NCBI GenBank assembly: GCA_037308085.1
Contig: CP147779.1
Location: 384,001-448,000, forward strand
From: Promethearchaeati archaeon SRVP18_Atabeyarchaeia-1
GTDB lineage: Archaea; Asgardarchaeota; Atabeyarchaeia; Atabeyarchaeales; Atabeyarchaeaceae
Reading direction: 5' to 3'
Length of the DNA: 64,000 nucleotides
Shown: piece after piece, positions 1,378-64,000 of the stretch
Numbering within the stretch: the first letter of the stretch is position 1
Layout: each line of letters begins with the position of its first letter
The notes under the pieces: model-generated
What the model saw: only the letters and a program-made list of their open reading frames with translations
Databases searched by the model: none
Told to the model about the DNA's origin: nothing
Program-made: the position numbers and the translations under genes

Positions 1378-1498
1378 GCCGTGGTAGCCAAGTCTGGTTA
1401 AGGCGCGGGATTGGAGATCCCGTTCCCTTTTGGGAGCGTCGGTTCAAATCCGGCCCATTTCACGTGGTAAGCACACCATGTGGAGGCTAGCGGCGCCA
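1378..1498 (+). tRNA. tRNA-Ser(GGA) with a 33-nt BHB intron (1458-1490) in the 3' acceptor strand; CCA encoded
   Basis: GCCGTGG acceptor; anticodon stem CGGGA/TCCCG with GGA at 1413-1415; long variable arm; GTCGG-TTCAAAT-CCGGC T arm; spliced 3' strand CCA|CGGC-G-CCA pairs perfectly with the 5' strand. Confidence 0.93.
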
Positions 1499-1926
1499 TG
1501 CCCAATGCATGCTGAAGGACCGACATCTCCCCTGAAACCATCATGAACCGGAGTGCCCCTGCTTTCTTTTCCGCATACCCCTGTTGACGAGCTCCAGGTC
1601 CCCTGTCTCGTGTGCTCCAGAATTCAGTCGCTCAGCAACCTCAATCGCACGAATATGGCGATTGATATCTCATGCACCTTCCGATGGTTACGTAAAAGTG
1701 CATGCCAGAACCATTTCAGAAACGATTTTCGGATTGGATGGGTCGTAAGTCCGATGGATATAAAGCTCGCGAATGGAAAATGCTTAAATACTTATAATTG
1801 GCTTTCTGGTTTGCACAATCGTTCCATGCCGCGGAGAATCGGCAGGTCGATTTGCTTGGCAATGATTATATACCGATTGATCCCTAGTGGAGCGAAGCTG
1901 ACGCAGTTAATAGAGAGTGTTGCAGT

Positions 1927-2388
1927 ATGTCTGAGGGGTTTAGACACATCGTAAGAATCGCTGGCACGGATCTCCAGGGTTCAGAGAAGTTGCCCTATGC
2001 GCTGGCAAGTATCGAAGGAGTCAGCACCAGAACGGCCTACGCGGCCATCAAGATAGCTGGGCTAGACCCAGAGCTGAGGGCAGGATATCTGTCTGAGACT
2101 CAAGCCAAGGAACTTGAGAAGATAGTACAGGATATGTCCAAGATCGGCATACCAAGCTGGTTGCTCAACCGGCGGAAGGATGTAGCAACGGGGAAAGACA
2201 CCCATGTAATCGGTGCCGACTTGAAGCTGGCAAACAGGACCGATATCGAAAGGATGAAGGCAACAAAGAGTTGGAAGGGAATCAGGCACGCGCTGGGACT
2301 GAAGGTAAGAGGGCAGCATACGAGAACAACTGGCAGAACAGGGCAGACTGTTGGAGTAAGCAAGAAGAGAGCGAGAGCAGCGAAATAG
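1927..2388 (+). CDS. rps13: 30S ribosomal protein S13 (uS13)
   Basis: FRHIVRIAGTDL, WLLNRRKD, GIRHALGLKVRGQHTRTTGR. Confidence 0.97.
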   Translation: MSEGFRHIVRIAGTDLQGSEKLPYALASIEGVSTRTAYAAIKIAGLDPELRAGYLSETQAKELEKIVQDMSKIGIPSWLLNRRKDVATGKDTHVIGADLKLANRTDIERMKATKSWKGIRHALGLKVRGQHTRTTGRTGQTVGVSKKRARAAK

Positions 2389-2432
2389 GGAAAGCGTGGC
2401 GACGATCACATCTTCATTGAGGTTGAGAAAAC

Positions 2433-2981
2433 ATGGGAGACATCAAGAAACTCAGAAAGAAATATGTCAAGCCAGGTCACCCTTGGCAGAGAGACAGGAT
2501 ACGATCAGAAATCCTTCTGGTAGGCAAGTATGGACTGAGGAACAAAAGAGAGGTCTGGATCGCGAGAACACTCCTCGGTGATTTCAGAAGGCGTGCTAGG
2601 GAAGTCCTATCGCTGTCATCAGCCGAGAAGGAAGAGGAAGAAAAGGGACTGATGAGGCGCTTACGTAGGCTTGGTCTGGTAAGTGAGAATGCAAACATAG
2701 ATGATGTACTAGATTTGACACTGCCGAACATTCTCGAAAGAAGACTGCAAACAATAGTGTATAAGCTTGGGCTGGCGAAATCGGTCCACCAATCTAGGCA
2801 GCTGATCGTGCACGGGCACATCGCCATAAAGGGCTGCGCCACAACATCCCCTGGGAGGCTGGTAGGGTTAGAAGAAGAGGCGCAGGTGACGTACGCGCCT
2901 GGCAGCCCGTTCATGAACAGGGATCTTGTCAAGGAAGAAGTCGAGGAACATCCAAAAGAACAGAAGAAAAGTGTAAAATAG
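2433..2981 (+). CDS. rps4: 30S ribosomal protein S4 (uS4)
   Basis: PGHPW, YGLRNKREVW, LERRLQTIV, RQLIVHGHI. Confidence 0.97.
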   Translation: MGDIKKLRKKYVKPGHPWQRDRIRSEILLVGKYGLRNKREVWIARTLLGDFRRRAREVLSLSSAEKEEEEKGLMRRLRRLGLVSENANIDDVLDLTLPNILERRLQTIVYKLGLAKSVHQSRQLIVHGHIAIKGCATTSPGRLVGLEEEAQVTYAPGSPFMNRDLVKEEVEEHPKEQKKSVK

Positions 2982-3098
2982 TTATGAATTCACTCCGCAA
3001 AGAAAATGATTAATGTGGATTGCAAAGGAAGACTTGGTGTCGCAACGCTGTAAATACTCACTAACCAAGTTTTTAGAATATGGGGAGGCCCACCGTAA

Positions 3099-3737
3099 TT
3101 GAGCGAACGAAAAAAGAAGAAGAGCGGGAAAGAAGAGAAAGCTAAGGAAAGCATTGAGACTAAGGAACTCAAAGACAAGACAGCAAAGGACAAGAAAACC
3201 AAGGAGCAGAAGACAAAAGAAGAGAAGACAAAAGGTCAGAAAACTAAGGAACAGGCAGTAGAAAAGAAGGTCGAGGAACCAAAGCCTAAGGCAGAAGCCG
3301 TGGAAGAAGAATCCAAGAAGAGGGAAAGGCAAAGAGAACCTGAAGAAGGAAAAAGAATGAGGTGGGGTGTGGCCCACATCTTCAGCTCATACAACGATAC
3401 GATAGTCCACATTACTGATCTAACCGGGGCAGAAACTGTAGCGAGGGCATCTGGAGGCATGATAGTAAAAGCCGACCGAGACGAAGCCACGCCCTACGCA
3501 GCCATGCAAGCATCATTTAGGGCCGCCCAAGAAGCGATGGACAAGGGTGTAAGAGGAGTTCATATAAAGGTTCGAGCTCCTGGTGGTCATGGTCCAAAGA
3601 CCCCTGGACCGGGCGCCCAAGCTGCCATAAGAGCGCTGGCTAGGGCAGGTCTAAGAATAGGGCGCATCGAAGAGTGTACACCAATACCGCATGATGGAAC
3701 AAGGCGACCAGGAGGCAGAAGAGGAAGGCGTGTATAG
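3099..3737 (+). CDS. rps11: 30S ribosomal protein S11 (uS11) with a long K/E-rich N-terminal extension
   Basis: [44 protein letters not shown]. Confidence 0.97.
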
Positions 3738-3914
3738 GTTCCATTGCGGGCTTGCAGGGACCAACCTGCTACCGCGATTTCTCTTAGACTCTTGCCAGAT
3801 TCAATAGTGAGAAGAATTTGCGATTAGAGAAAAATTGAAATAACTTCAGAATTATCTGCATCTCTCAAAGACCCAGTTCACTTCATCATTCCGTCTTGTA
3901 CCCAGGTGTGATTA

Positions 3915-62177: not shown

Positions 62178-62225
62178 GCTTCAACAGATTCTATGTTGCA
62201 GGCCACCATACAAGAAGTGGTTAGT

Positions 62226-62630
62226 GGGTCCGTAGCTCAAGGTGGAAGAGCGCGAGTCTAGCTCCCACCCTTGCGGGGAGTTCAAATAGAGATTAGTGAA
62301 ACGAATGACTTGTCAGAAAAGTCATGCCGTATAACCAGGAAAGGGTGATTGCTTCAACTTCGCGAGATCTGCGCCGTAATCATTTCTATAGAAACCTTAT
62401 GTATCCCAGTTGGTGATCTTGCGATGCCAATGATCTTTCTTGGTGAGATTGTTTTCGACAGGACATTATTCACGATTGACTTGGCAAACTAGGTGCTAGA
62501 TCTGGACTCAACAATCAACTGGACCATAATAGATCTGAAGGGAGAATATCTGACCCGAATAGCTTCGAATTTTGGGGATCCATCCGAGTCCTCAGGTCAG
62601 AGCTACGACGACAGTATATCGCTAGGACCG
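62226..62630 (+). pseudogene. Degenerate, hairpin-rich tRNA-like element (intact 5' acceptor strand and D arm)
   Basis: GGGTCCG TA GCTC AAGGTGGAA GAGC G, then scattered tRNA-like pieces (ATAACCAGG 62331, AGATC 62531, GGACC 62625) separated by hairpins. Confidence 0.45.
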
Positions 62631-62658
62631 AGAGATTGGCTGGAAAGGGTGTGGGTGA

Positions 62659-63582
62659 TTGAGGACTAACACAGTCCATCCGAATTTGAGGACTAAGTAC
62701 TTCCTTGCAATTGACACGAAAGAAAAAGCGTATTGGCTCGGATTTCTGTTCGCCGATGGCTGTATCATAAGACACCCCAGAACAATACAGATTCAACTCA
62801 AACTTAGACGAGCCGACGAAGAAACCATTGACAGATTCTGCGAGTGTCTCAGGCTTGAAAAGGGCAAAAAGGATTACGTTCGAGAACGCGAAAAGGATGG
62901 AACAATATCAGAGAAGATCAGAATCAGATTTGCCAGCAGAGAAATGGGAAGGAGTCTCCTAAAGCACGGGTTAGAGTTTCGGAAATCGAAAATCATTGAA
63001 TATCCGAGATTACCCCGTCGACATCTGGAGCTTGCGTTTCTATTGGGATACTATGATGGCGATGGACTGCAGAATACGACAAGAATCAACTCCGGCAGCG
63101 TCCGATTTCTGGAACAGGTCAAGGAGAGATTCAACTTGCCTTACAAAATCCAGTTGAATAAACGCAAAACCGTATTTCATGGCAGAGAGATAGAAGGCAC
63201 AGAGTACTACATGTGCTTGGGCCCTGAGCTGTTCAATGAGATGATGAGAGACTATGCAGGAAGCATGCCTAGGAAACGTTGGTTCCCATGCGATTCAAAG
63301 GAAAAACTGCGCAGGCACCGTGAGGCTTGCACATCCGAAATGACTCAGAGAAGAAGAGGACTGCAGAAGGATTGGAGAGCCATCACGAGGGATAAACTAG
63401 AAAGATTAGTATGGCAAATGCCGTTAGCACATATCGCCATTAGATACAACGTCAGTAATGTGGATGTTATAGCGAAAAAGTGTGAGAAGCTTGGTGTTTC
63501 CAGACCAGAACATGGTTACTGGCAAAGACAATACTGGATAAACCGGAGATCCTTAGGAAAGAGTTCAATACAGAATAAATAG
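62659..63582 (+). CDS. Double-motif LAGLIDADG homing-endonuclease-like protein with C-terminal HTH
   Basis: AYWLGFLFADGCI and LAFLLGYYDGDG; C-terminal ITRDKLERLVWQMP...IAKKCEKLGVSRP..GYW. Confidence 0.85.
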   Translation: MRTNTVHPNLRTKYFLAIDTKEKAYWLGFLFADGCIIRHPRTIQIQLKLRRADEETIDRFCECLRLEKGKKDYVREREKDGTISEKIRIRFASREMGRSLLKHGLEFRKSKIIEYPRLPRRHLELAFLLGYYDGDGLQNTTRINSGSVRFLEQVKERFNLPYKIQLNKRKTVFHGREIEGTEYYMCLGPELFNEMMRDYAGSMPRKRWFPCDSKEKLRRHREACTSEMTQRRRGLQKDWRAITRDKLERLVWQMPLAHIAIRYNVSNVDVIAKKCEKLGVSRPEHGYWQRQYWINRRSLGKSSIQNK

Positions 63583-63795
63583 TTCCCTACTTCGAAGTGA
63601 AGGAAATAATATATCCTCTCCGCGATATTCTCCTTTTTTCCCTCCTTCTTCAATCTCTGCTGAGAATTCTTGATTCCCTGCAACCCCATTTACGAACATC
63701 ACTACTAGGTATTTCAAAACTTCAATTCTGTCCCAGATAACCCCTGGTCATGGCTAAGGTTTCTGTAATCTGAAGAGGGAGTTGAAGGATACACC

Positions 63796-63802
63796 TTATA
63801 TA
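63796..63802 (+). promoter_or_regulatory. TATA box of tRNA-Ile
   Basis: TTATATA about 27 nt upstream of the tRNA 5' end. Confidence 0.55.
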
Positions 63803-63828
63803 CATGTTTTTGGCAACTCATCTAACGC

Positions 63829-64000
63829 GGGTCCGTAGCTCAAAGCGAAGACATCAAGGTGCGTCTTCACTGGCAAAGCTTGGCTAGAGCGTTCGGCTGA
63901 ACATCAAGAGCAACTGGAAGAGATGGGCCAATAACCGAAAAGGGAAGGCTCAGTCAGGAGAAGCCTGCCGTAGGGAAAGATCGCGAGTCCGAAACTCGCC
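63829..64000 (+). tRNA. tRNA-Ile(GAT) with three introns: 63843-63877 (14/15), 63901-63931 (35/36, inside the anticodon), 63940-63977 (43/44); 3' end beyond the window
   Basis: Spliced product GGGTCCG TA GCTC AGCTTGGCTA GAGC G TTCGG CTGATAA CCGAA AGATC GCGAG TCCGAAA CTCGC C... Confidence 0.88.

Follow-up and report, generated by a model that had tools for sequence, protein, structure and literature searches.

Predicted splicing-endonuclease introns interrupt three tRNA genes and the valyl-tRNA synthetase gene in a 64-kb stretch of an Atabeyarchaeia genome

Results

The DNA analysed here (the window) is a stretch of 64,000 nucleotides (nt) from the Promethearchaeati archaeon SRVP18_Atabeyarchaeia-1, positions 384,001 to 448,000 of contig CP147779.1 (G000:C1:384001-448000 in our collection, where G000 is the genome under study and, together with G001 and G002, makes up the three genomes sampled for the class). 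The genome is a single contig of 2,808,651 base pairs (bp) with 49.6% G+C, is 97% complete, and was reported as a complete genome of 2.81 Mbp from wetland soil (PMC11291895); public runs containing related DNA were, in fact, soil and wetland metagenomes only. Within the window, all on the forward strand, lie the genes for tRNA-Ser(GGA), tRNA-Leu(CAA) and tRNA-Ile(GAU) and the gene for valyl-tRNA synthetase (valS), each interrupted by short inserts that we read as bulge-helix-bulge (BHB) introns, the substrates of the archaeal splicing endonuclease EndA. Seven complete tRNA introns and one mRNA intron are found in these four genes, and a ninth intron lies across the window's edge. A first-pass annotation had described all three recognisable tRNA genes as interrupted (by one, three and three introns), with at least eight introns of 19-43 nt in four genes and none at the canonical position 37/38. 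The spliced cloverleaves bear this out: every site listed and the size range proved correct on excision, the 37/38 site is used by none, and the only addition is the ninth intron, missed since the window ends there, which brings the tRNA-Ile gene to four.

Such genes are largely invisible to standard tools. ARAGORN and Rfam together called only tRNA-Ser(GGA) in the 64 kb, with a mispaired acceptor stem; Rfam at permissive E-values over the window returned nothing except the same tRNA, and so did a scan of the window for intact T-arms. Over the whole genome, ARAGORN reports 22 tRNAs in 2.8 Mb, several of them dubious. A BHB scanner was combined with ARAGORN, in which an outer helix, a 4-nt strand of the central helix, a 3-nt bulge and an inner helix are mirrored on the 3' side and cleavage is placed between the second and third bulge bases, a geometry that follows the definition of Marck and Grosjean as quoted in bioRxiv 10.64898/2026.10.13.758758. 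Excision in this register produced three tRNAs that ARAGORN accepts, with stems fully paired. When the larger intergenic regions were treated in the same way no additional tRNA emerged, from a pipeline that misses relaxed motifs.

The tRNA-Ser(GGA) gene (1378-1498) encodes its CCA and contains a single intron of 33 nt at 68/69 in the acceptor stem (1458-1490), with the central helix GGCC/GGCT paired at 4/4 positions and an inner helix of eight pairs; its removal changes CCAUUUC to CCACGGC, the perfect acceptor complement, and leaves a tRNA of 88 nt with a perfect 7-bp acceptor stem. Three introns are present in the tRNA-Leu(CAA) gene (57264-57438), the spliced form of which is tRNA-Leu(caa) for ARAGORN: one of 19 nt in the D-loop at about 21/22 (57287-57305; GGTC/GACC, 4/4, with an outer helix of 3 bp), one of 43 nt in the variable arm (57335-57377; CTCG/CGAG, 4/4, with weak flanking helices) and one of 26 nt in the T-loop at 59/60 (57396-57421), which has the strict hBHBh' form, with a 4/4 central helix, the 5-bp T-stem as its outer helix and an inner helix of 5 bp. 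The tRNA-Ile(GAU) gene (63829-64042) runs 42 nt past the window's end and was located by BLAST with its G002 ortholog, which directly follows valS in that genome; spliced, it measures 78 nt and is called tRNA-Ile(gat) by ARAGORN. Its introns are found at 14/15 (35 nt, 63843-63877; central helix 3/4, inner helix 7/8, outer helix weak), within the anticodon at 35/36 (31 nt, 63901-63931; GGCT/GGCC, 4/4, inner helix of 4 bp), at 43/44 (38 nt, 63940-63977; the weakest motif, its position set by the cloverleaf and by G002) and at 59/60 (32 nt, 63994-64025, cut by the window's end at 64000; strict hBHBh', TCCG/CGGA, 4/4, outer helix of 5 bp and inner helix of 4 bp). Counting valS, six introns have a fully paired central helix and hence the strict form (the one in tRNA-Ser, the three in tRNA-Leu, and the 35/36 and 59/60 introns of tRNA-Ile) and three are relaxed; flanking helices have at least two contiguous pairs in most introns, the outer helix being weak in the tRNA-Leu variable arm and at tRNA-Ile 14/15. 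That the BHB geometry is shared, with mismatches in several central helices, had also been noted in the first-pass annotation and is correct.

The same geometry is found in a coding gene. Unspliced, valS opens with a frame of 91 codons, reading ...PPPYASGPWHLGG...FPMGIDRNG, that ends at a UAA (59948-59950), and continues in the next frame with IPIEVQAEK..., the 3' open reading frame (ORF) being 718 amino acids (aa) long at 60021-62177. Both pieces are class-I synthetase: exon 1 (59675-59948), made of the 91 codons and the first base of a Leu codon, matches Pfam tRNA-synt_1 (2-73) and the valS profile (3-84), and exon 2 (59980-62177) matches NF009687, valine-tRNA ligase, at profile positions 90-796, from its residue 1. 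The genome has one gene of the valS class, other class-I matches being longer paralogs with much lower valS scores. Excision of the 31 nt at 59949-59979 creates a single frame of 2472 nt for 823 aa, reading ...GIDRNGLPIEVQAEK..., with a splice junction GGA U|UA that encodes Gly-Leu. The central helix of this insert, ACGG/CCGG, consists of three G-C pairs and one A.G and is flanked by the bulges AU^A and AA^U (the caret marking the cut); a single A.C mismatch precedes the 5 bp of the inner helix, and a 2x2 mismatch (A.A, A.C) precedes the seven perfect pairs of the outer helix. RNAfold returns the proposed BHB both as the minimum free energy fold and as the centroid, with z = -5.1. Due to a CGGA repeat, five other boundary pairs (intron start 59944-59948) are equivalent to one another, and manual fitting brought none of them into BHB form; of the frame-restoring cuts the sixth, at 59949-59979, does fit, and turns the junction codon from AUA to UUA.

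Comparison with relatives supports this boundary. Asgard archaea outside the class have the same valS gene shorter by exactly 31 nt at the insert, and among 301 sampled Asgard genomes the DNA alignment crosses it in the three Atabeyarchaeia only, all others ending at 59946-59948. A metagenome scan for the end of exon 1 followed by UAA recovered three extra alleles, and the insert is exactly 31 nt long in all six (three genomes and three metagenome contigs). The proposed structure is paired in 93.8% of the cells of the six-allele alignment, against 24-53% when the partners are slid, and the inner helix contains two double compensatory changes, A-U to G-C and C-G to U-A. The junction codon that the BHB cut creates is UUA in four alleles and UUG in two, hence always Leu, and Leu (CUU or CUA) is also what the intron-less Asgard valS genes encode at that codon. 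The 64-kb window showed no other split coding gene; the overlapping ORFs at 23643-25058, considered as a frameshift, turned out to be three separate genes (DUF359, S24e and S27ae).

Conservation extends to the tRNA introns, as the three genomes of the class share the sites of eight of the nine window introns, that of valS among them. In G001 and G002, the tRNA-Ser and tRNA-Leu genes have near-identical exons, and introns that have diverged but retain their pairing. The tRNA-Ser 68/69 intron is common to both relatives, with compensatory changes in its inner helix; the tRNA-Leu D-loop intron occupies the same site in both, where a G-U preserves pairing; the variable-arm intron, again at the same site, is 43 nt long in G000, 29 in G001 and 42 in G002; and the inner helix of the tRNA-Leu 59/60 intron co-varies in both. 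In the tRNA-Ile gene, the 14/15 and 35/36 introns are at the same sites in G002 and in a metagenome locus (L059), and the 43/44 site holds an insert of 41 nt in G002 versus 38 nt in G000. The tRNA-Ile 59/60 intron, the sole window intron that differs within the class, is absent from G002, where the T-arm is uninterrupted. Similarity between introns did not exceed that of shuffled controls (10 introns compared, including that of cbf5, described below), in agreement with the earlier remark that they do not resemble one another. The support for these introns stands above chance because three things concur: the cloverleaves, the orthologous loci with their conserved exons and diverged introns, and the restored frame.

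The L059 locus (reverse strand, from base 11125) is a tRNA-Ile ortholog with the 14/15, 35/36 and 43/44 introns, in which the 3' end of the T-stem and acceptor was not found within 2.6 kb after GCGAGUUUGAA; it may contain a very long T-loop insert, or be a disrupted gene.

Both enzymes of the pathway are encoded, with two EndA loci (PF01974) and one RtcB in the genome. The candidate alpha subunit, of 209 aa, has both EndA domains, the Tyr, His and Lys residues, and the GxDYxVY, DH and RKK elements; in the PDB it is closest to crenarchaeal alpha subunits, with an end-to-end alignment to 3P1Z_B (E 5e-46), and it aligns with the alpha subunits of Aeropyrum, Sulfolobus and Pyrobaculum. In the 3P1Z_B alignment its segment SVRKPKTFDF lies opposite DVEKPRGADF of Aeropyrum, the EKPR segment, which may be the Crenarchaea-specific loop whose Lys would give the alpha subunit its broad substrate range. 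The second EndA, of 241 aa, also has both domains, lacks the catalytic His at the aligned place, is far more diverged, and has the Methanopyrus EndA-like fusion 5X89 as its best PDB match. This set is, as predicted from its genes, a two-subunit arrangement like that of the (alpha-beta)2 enzymes of Aeropyrum pernix, Sulfolobus tokodaii and Pyrobaculum aerophilum (3P1Z, 3AJV, 2CV8, 2ZYZ; PMC3241643, PMC5829648), with which it shares one catalytic and one His-less gene; it differs in a beta subunit that is more diverged and longer, with an N-terminal extension. An endonuclease of broad specificity had been expected from the relaxed motifs, and two-subunit EndA has indeed been linked to the cleavage of non-canonical introns (PMC5829648).

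The first-pass annotation had also supposed that other apparently frameshifted genes of this genome might be spliced, and four genes with inserts outside the window fit this prediction: cbf5, gatE, ahcY and a gene for a RuBisCO-like protein, each with a frame-restoring BHB insert within one Pfam domain, as checked by drawing the BHB, by the junction sequence and by Pfam continuity. The cbf5 gene is split by a strict BHB insert of 41 nt at C1:383798-383838, that is, 162-202 nt before the window's start, with a 4/4 central helix, an outer helix paired at 5/5 and an inner helix at 5/6 positions, and runs on into the window at 3-611. Its junction, G|AU, is the codon for the catalytic Asp of GTLDPRV, in GHGGTLDPRVTG, and the codon position is identical to the classic crenarchaeal site (PMC2738675). 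In gatE, an insert of 41 nt (2219068-2219108; central helix 4/4) separates halves that match the GatB_N profile at positions 2-30 and 45-276; in ahcY, an insert of 34 nt (488226-488259; 4/4) separates halves that match AdoHcyase at positions 1-139 and 225-285, and the junction restores GHPS-E-VMDMSF. The insert of the RuBisCO-like gene is 22 nt long.

Between valS and the tRNA-Ile gene, a 27-nt orphan (62226-62252) occupies the place that the whole tRNA-Ile gene has in G002, and matches the G002 5' exon and the start of its 14/15 intron with 91% identity over 23 nt. It is followed by a 1.6-kb insert with an ORF of 307 aa bearing two LAGLIDADG motifs (62659-63582; PF14528), downstream of which the complete tRNA-Ile gene has its own TATA-like box, CTTATATACA, at 63795-63804; a direct repeat of 15 nt, GGGTCCGTAGCTCAA, at 62226 and 63829 brackets the insert. 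Elsewhere in the genome are four paralogs of the ORF, 49-60% identical to it (C1:464896-465735, 507898-508329, 783237-784118 and 825131-825967), and two of these adjoin tRNA genes, one beginning 94 nt past tRNA-Arg(CCT) (507700-507804) and another lying about 700 nt from tRNA-Ala(TGC) (464137-464212); flanking direct repeats were not found at the four paralogs. The insert looks like a homing-endonuclease cassette that would have replaced the 5' end of the tRNA-Ile gene and stranded its old start. When the piece at 62226 was considered as the beginning of a third tRNA, no combination of BHB excisions yielded one and the expected 3' end, CGGACCC, was not found nearby; considered as a trans-splicing half, it returned noise alone in a k-mer search for a partner. 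A giant intron at 62240-63877 that uses the orphan as its 5' exon is structurally possible, with a central helix at 3/4 like that of the short intron and an inner helix of about six pairs as counted by hand, and is not needed to explain the tRNA.

Three ARAGORN calls elsewhere in the genome, tRNA-Arg(TCT) at C1:2790415-2792083, tRNA-Glu(TTC) at C1:199487-200244 and tRNA-Leu(CAG) at C1:2137181-2137581, have anticodon-loop inserts of 1569, 660 and 301 nt, respectively, and are perhaps long introns, possibly ORF-bearing, or false calls.

Discussion

We put at roughly 85% the probability that the inserts of this window are archaeal splicing-endonuclease introns, spliced by EndA and RtcB. According to this model, exon and intron sequence around each insert would fold in the precursor RNA into two 3-nt bulges with a helix of 4 bp between them, sometimes imperfect; a heterotetrameric (alpha-beta)2 EndA would cut each bulge between its second and third bases, and the exons would then be ligated by RtcB. 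Splicing of this kind would be needed for tRNA-Ser(GGA), tRNA-Leu(CAA) and tRNA-Ile(GAU), and would unite the two out-of-frame pieces of valS into one mRNA for a valyl-tRNA synthetase of 823 aa. We infer cutting and ligation of these RNAs from the BHB geometry, the cloverleaves and the frame that excision restores, the conservation of the introns, and the presence of both enzymes, all of which are directly visible in the genomes.

Several observations weigh against this interpretation. The motif at tRNA-Ile 43/44 pairs at just 2/4 positions of the central helix, and that of valS is itself relaxed, with a central helix at 3/4 and mismatches that open both flanking helices. In the six-allele valS alignment, the shuffle control for the count of covarying pairs was not significant, with n = 6 sequences. 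Four metatranscriptome runs produced one contig, covering 59445-59640 only, and nothing across any window intron. The T-loop of the spliced tRNA-Ile, UCCGAAU (63983-63993 joined to 64026-64031), has an unusual C at position 55, where U is almost universal in tRNAs; at the same place G002 has UUCGAAU, and L059 has UUUGAA followed by an insert. Lastly, the genome-wide scan for frame-restoring BHB inserts that the first-pass annotation had suggested gave 16,233 candidates on the plus strand and 16,560 on the minus strand, and decoys with bulges of 2, 4 or 5 nt equalled the true geometry in number and in score distribution. The idea of such a scan succeeded for the four genes verified by homology, but the motif alone performed no better than decoys; since it has no specificity, the individual genes were verified through Pfam continuity, and any search for mRNA introns here has to bring in homology or RNA evidence alongside the motif.

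How these introns arose is a separate question, to which the first-pass annotation had offered an answer, namely an active process of intron gain that has spread from tRNA genes into mRNAs. The tRNA-Ile 59/60 intron, present in G000 and missing in G002, and the several coding genes that bear BHB introns are consistent with it, as are the 129 gains reconstructed for Asgard tRNA genes, many of them on terminal branches (bioRxiv 10.64898/2026.10.13.758758), although a general route of arrival was not found in that preprint. With eight of the nine window introns fixed across the class as sampled in three genomes, valS among them, "active" finds little in the window to sustain it, and the sequences do not show a spread from tRNAs into mRNA, as tRNA and mRNA introns share no similarity. 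Furthermore, a recent origin from a tRNA intron is not required for the cbf5 intron, because it sits at the exact site used in Crenarchaeota (PMC2738675); great age, or more than one insertion into a preferred site, would account for this better than recent spill-over. On this evidence, we regard an active and recent spread as unlikely.

With regard to valS, splicing by EndA and RtcB has to be compared with a ribosome that skips the insert by programmed translational bypassing, in which peptidyl-tRNA-Gly would leave the GGA at 59945-59947 and land on the GGA at 59976-59978. The arrangement does resemble that of T4 gene 60, where take-off and landing both use GGA and the first GGA runs straight into a stop and then a hairpin; in all six valS alleles, in fact, the take-off and landing codons are identical and conserved, and the UAA directly after take-off and the hairpin that follows are both present. 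The gap in gene 60, however, is 50 nt and not 31, and the valS insert is in exact BHB register, a 3-nt-bulge geometry that would serve no purpose in bypassing. The pattern of substitution also fits splicing better: the codon after landing would read I, L, M, I, M and I in the six alleles, whereas the BHB cut gives Leu in every one, as in the intron-less homologs, and bypassing would make the variable base 59979 the first of a codon, whereas splicing leaves it as a free bulge base. Finally, the BHB motifs of ahcY, gatE and cbf5 are not accompanied by a matching pair of take-off and landing codons. Bypassing is, in our opinion, very improbable. That valS is a decaying pseudogene, or its 31 nt an assembly or sequencing artefact, as the frameshift and the stop at 59948-59950 of the raw gene might suggest, is excluded for practical purposes, as this is the sole valS of a 97%-complete single-contig genome, inserts of identical length are found in six independent assemblies between intact and conserved frames, and the flanks together score as a full-length valS.

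Splicing by EndA and RtcB places the window among systems that are in part well known. For the tRNA genes, there is essentially no difference from what has been described for Atabeyarchaeia and Freyarchaeia (PMC11291895; bioRxiv 10.64898/2026.10.13.758758), and the window tRNAs are instances of it: introns, often non-canonical and multiple, were reported in 92-95% of the tRNA genes of these genomes (PMC11291895), and up to five per tRNA gene (bioRxiv 10.64898/2026.10.13.758758), a maximum within which the four of tRNA-Ile fall. The window is, in other words, a local sample of a genome-wide state, and the tRNA-intron load of the lineage is already in print and not new. The multi-intron tRNAs of Thermoproteales (Sugahara 2008) are similar as well, with several non-canonical BHB introns per gene that standard tRNA finders miss, and with the D-loop, the anticodon, 43/44, the variable arm, the T-loop and the acceptor stem as common sites.

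The closest parallel to the valS intron is that of the cbf5 pre-mRNA of Desulfurococcales and Sulfolobales (Watanabe 2002; Yokobori 2009, PMC2738675). In both cases a short insert in a coding gene (16-44 nt in cbf5, 31 in valS) forms a BHB out of exon and intron, the cut lies within a codon, between the second and third bulge bases, the endonuclease is known or predicted to be hetero-oligomeric, and the gene is useless unspliced. They differ in the host gene, in the Asgard lineage, in the one central-helix mismatch of valS and in that the splicing of valS is a prediction; cbf5 of G000 also bears such an intron, at the identical codon position. In the literature searched, archaeal BHB introns of coding genes are described for cbf5 only, with nothing on valS or on coding genes of Asgard archaea. 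Outside Archaea, HAC1 and XBP1 mRNAs lose an intron independently of the spliceosome, when the endonuclease Ire1 cuts two stem-loops and, in metazoans, RtcB joins the exons. Likeness to valS lies in a short mRNA intron, in the two cuts at stem-loops and in the change of frame upon joining by RtcB in metazoans; the enzyme, however, is Ire1 and not EndA/TSEN, and that process is regulatory and stress-induced, whereas no sign of regulation is seen here.

Taken further, these results lead to a broader proposal, the odds of which we judge to be about even: that in Atabeyarchaeia, a set of essential and mostly translation-related genes (valS, cbf5, gatE and ahcY being those verified) would be expressed only once their transcripts had been cut by EndA and joined by RtcB, and that this layer would still be undergoing remodelling, the signs of which are the gain or loss of the tRNA-Ile 59/60 intron and the homing-endonuclease cassette at the 5' end of that gene. 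Practical consequences are already apparent, as most tRNAs of the genome are missed by tRNA finders, and valS, cbf5, gatE and ahcY are split or truncated by gene callers; annotations of these Asgard genomes and the metabolic reconstructions built on them therefore under-report essential genes. If the proposal is true, a spliceosome-independent layer of mRNA splicing would exist in close relatives of eukaryotes, and the production of the translation apparatus would be tied to the capacity for tRNA splicing. An essential aminoacyl-tRNA synthetase that depends on tRNA-type splicing of its mRNA would extend a mechanism published for cbf5 alone in Crenarchaeota to the closest archaeal relatives of eukaryotes, and would bear on the origin of mRNA splicing and on the roles of TSEN and RtcB.

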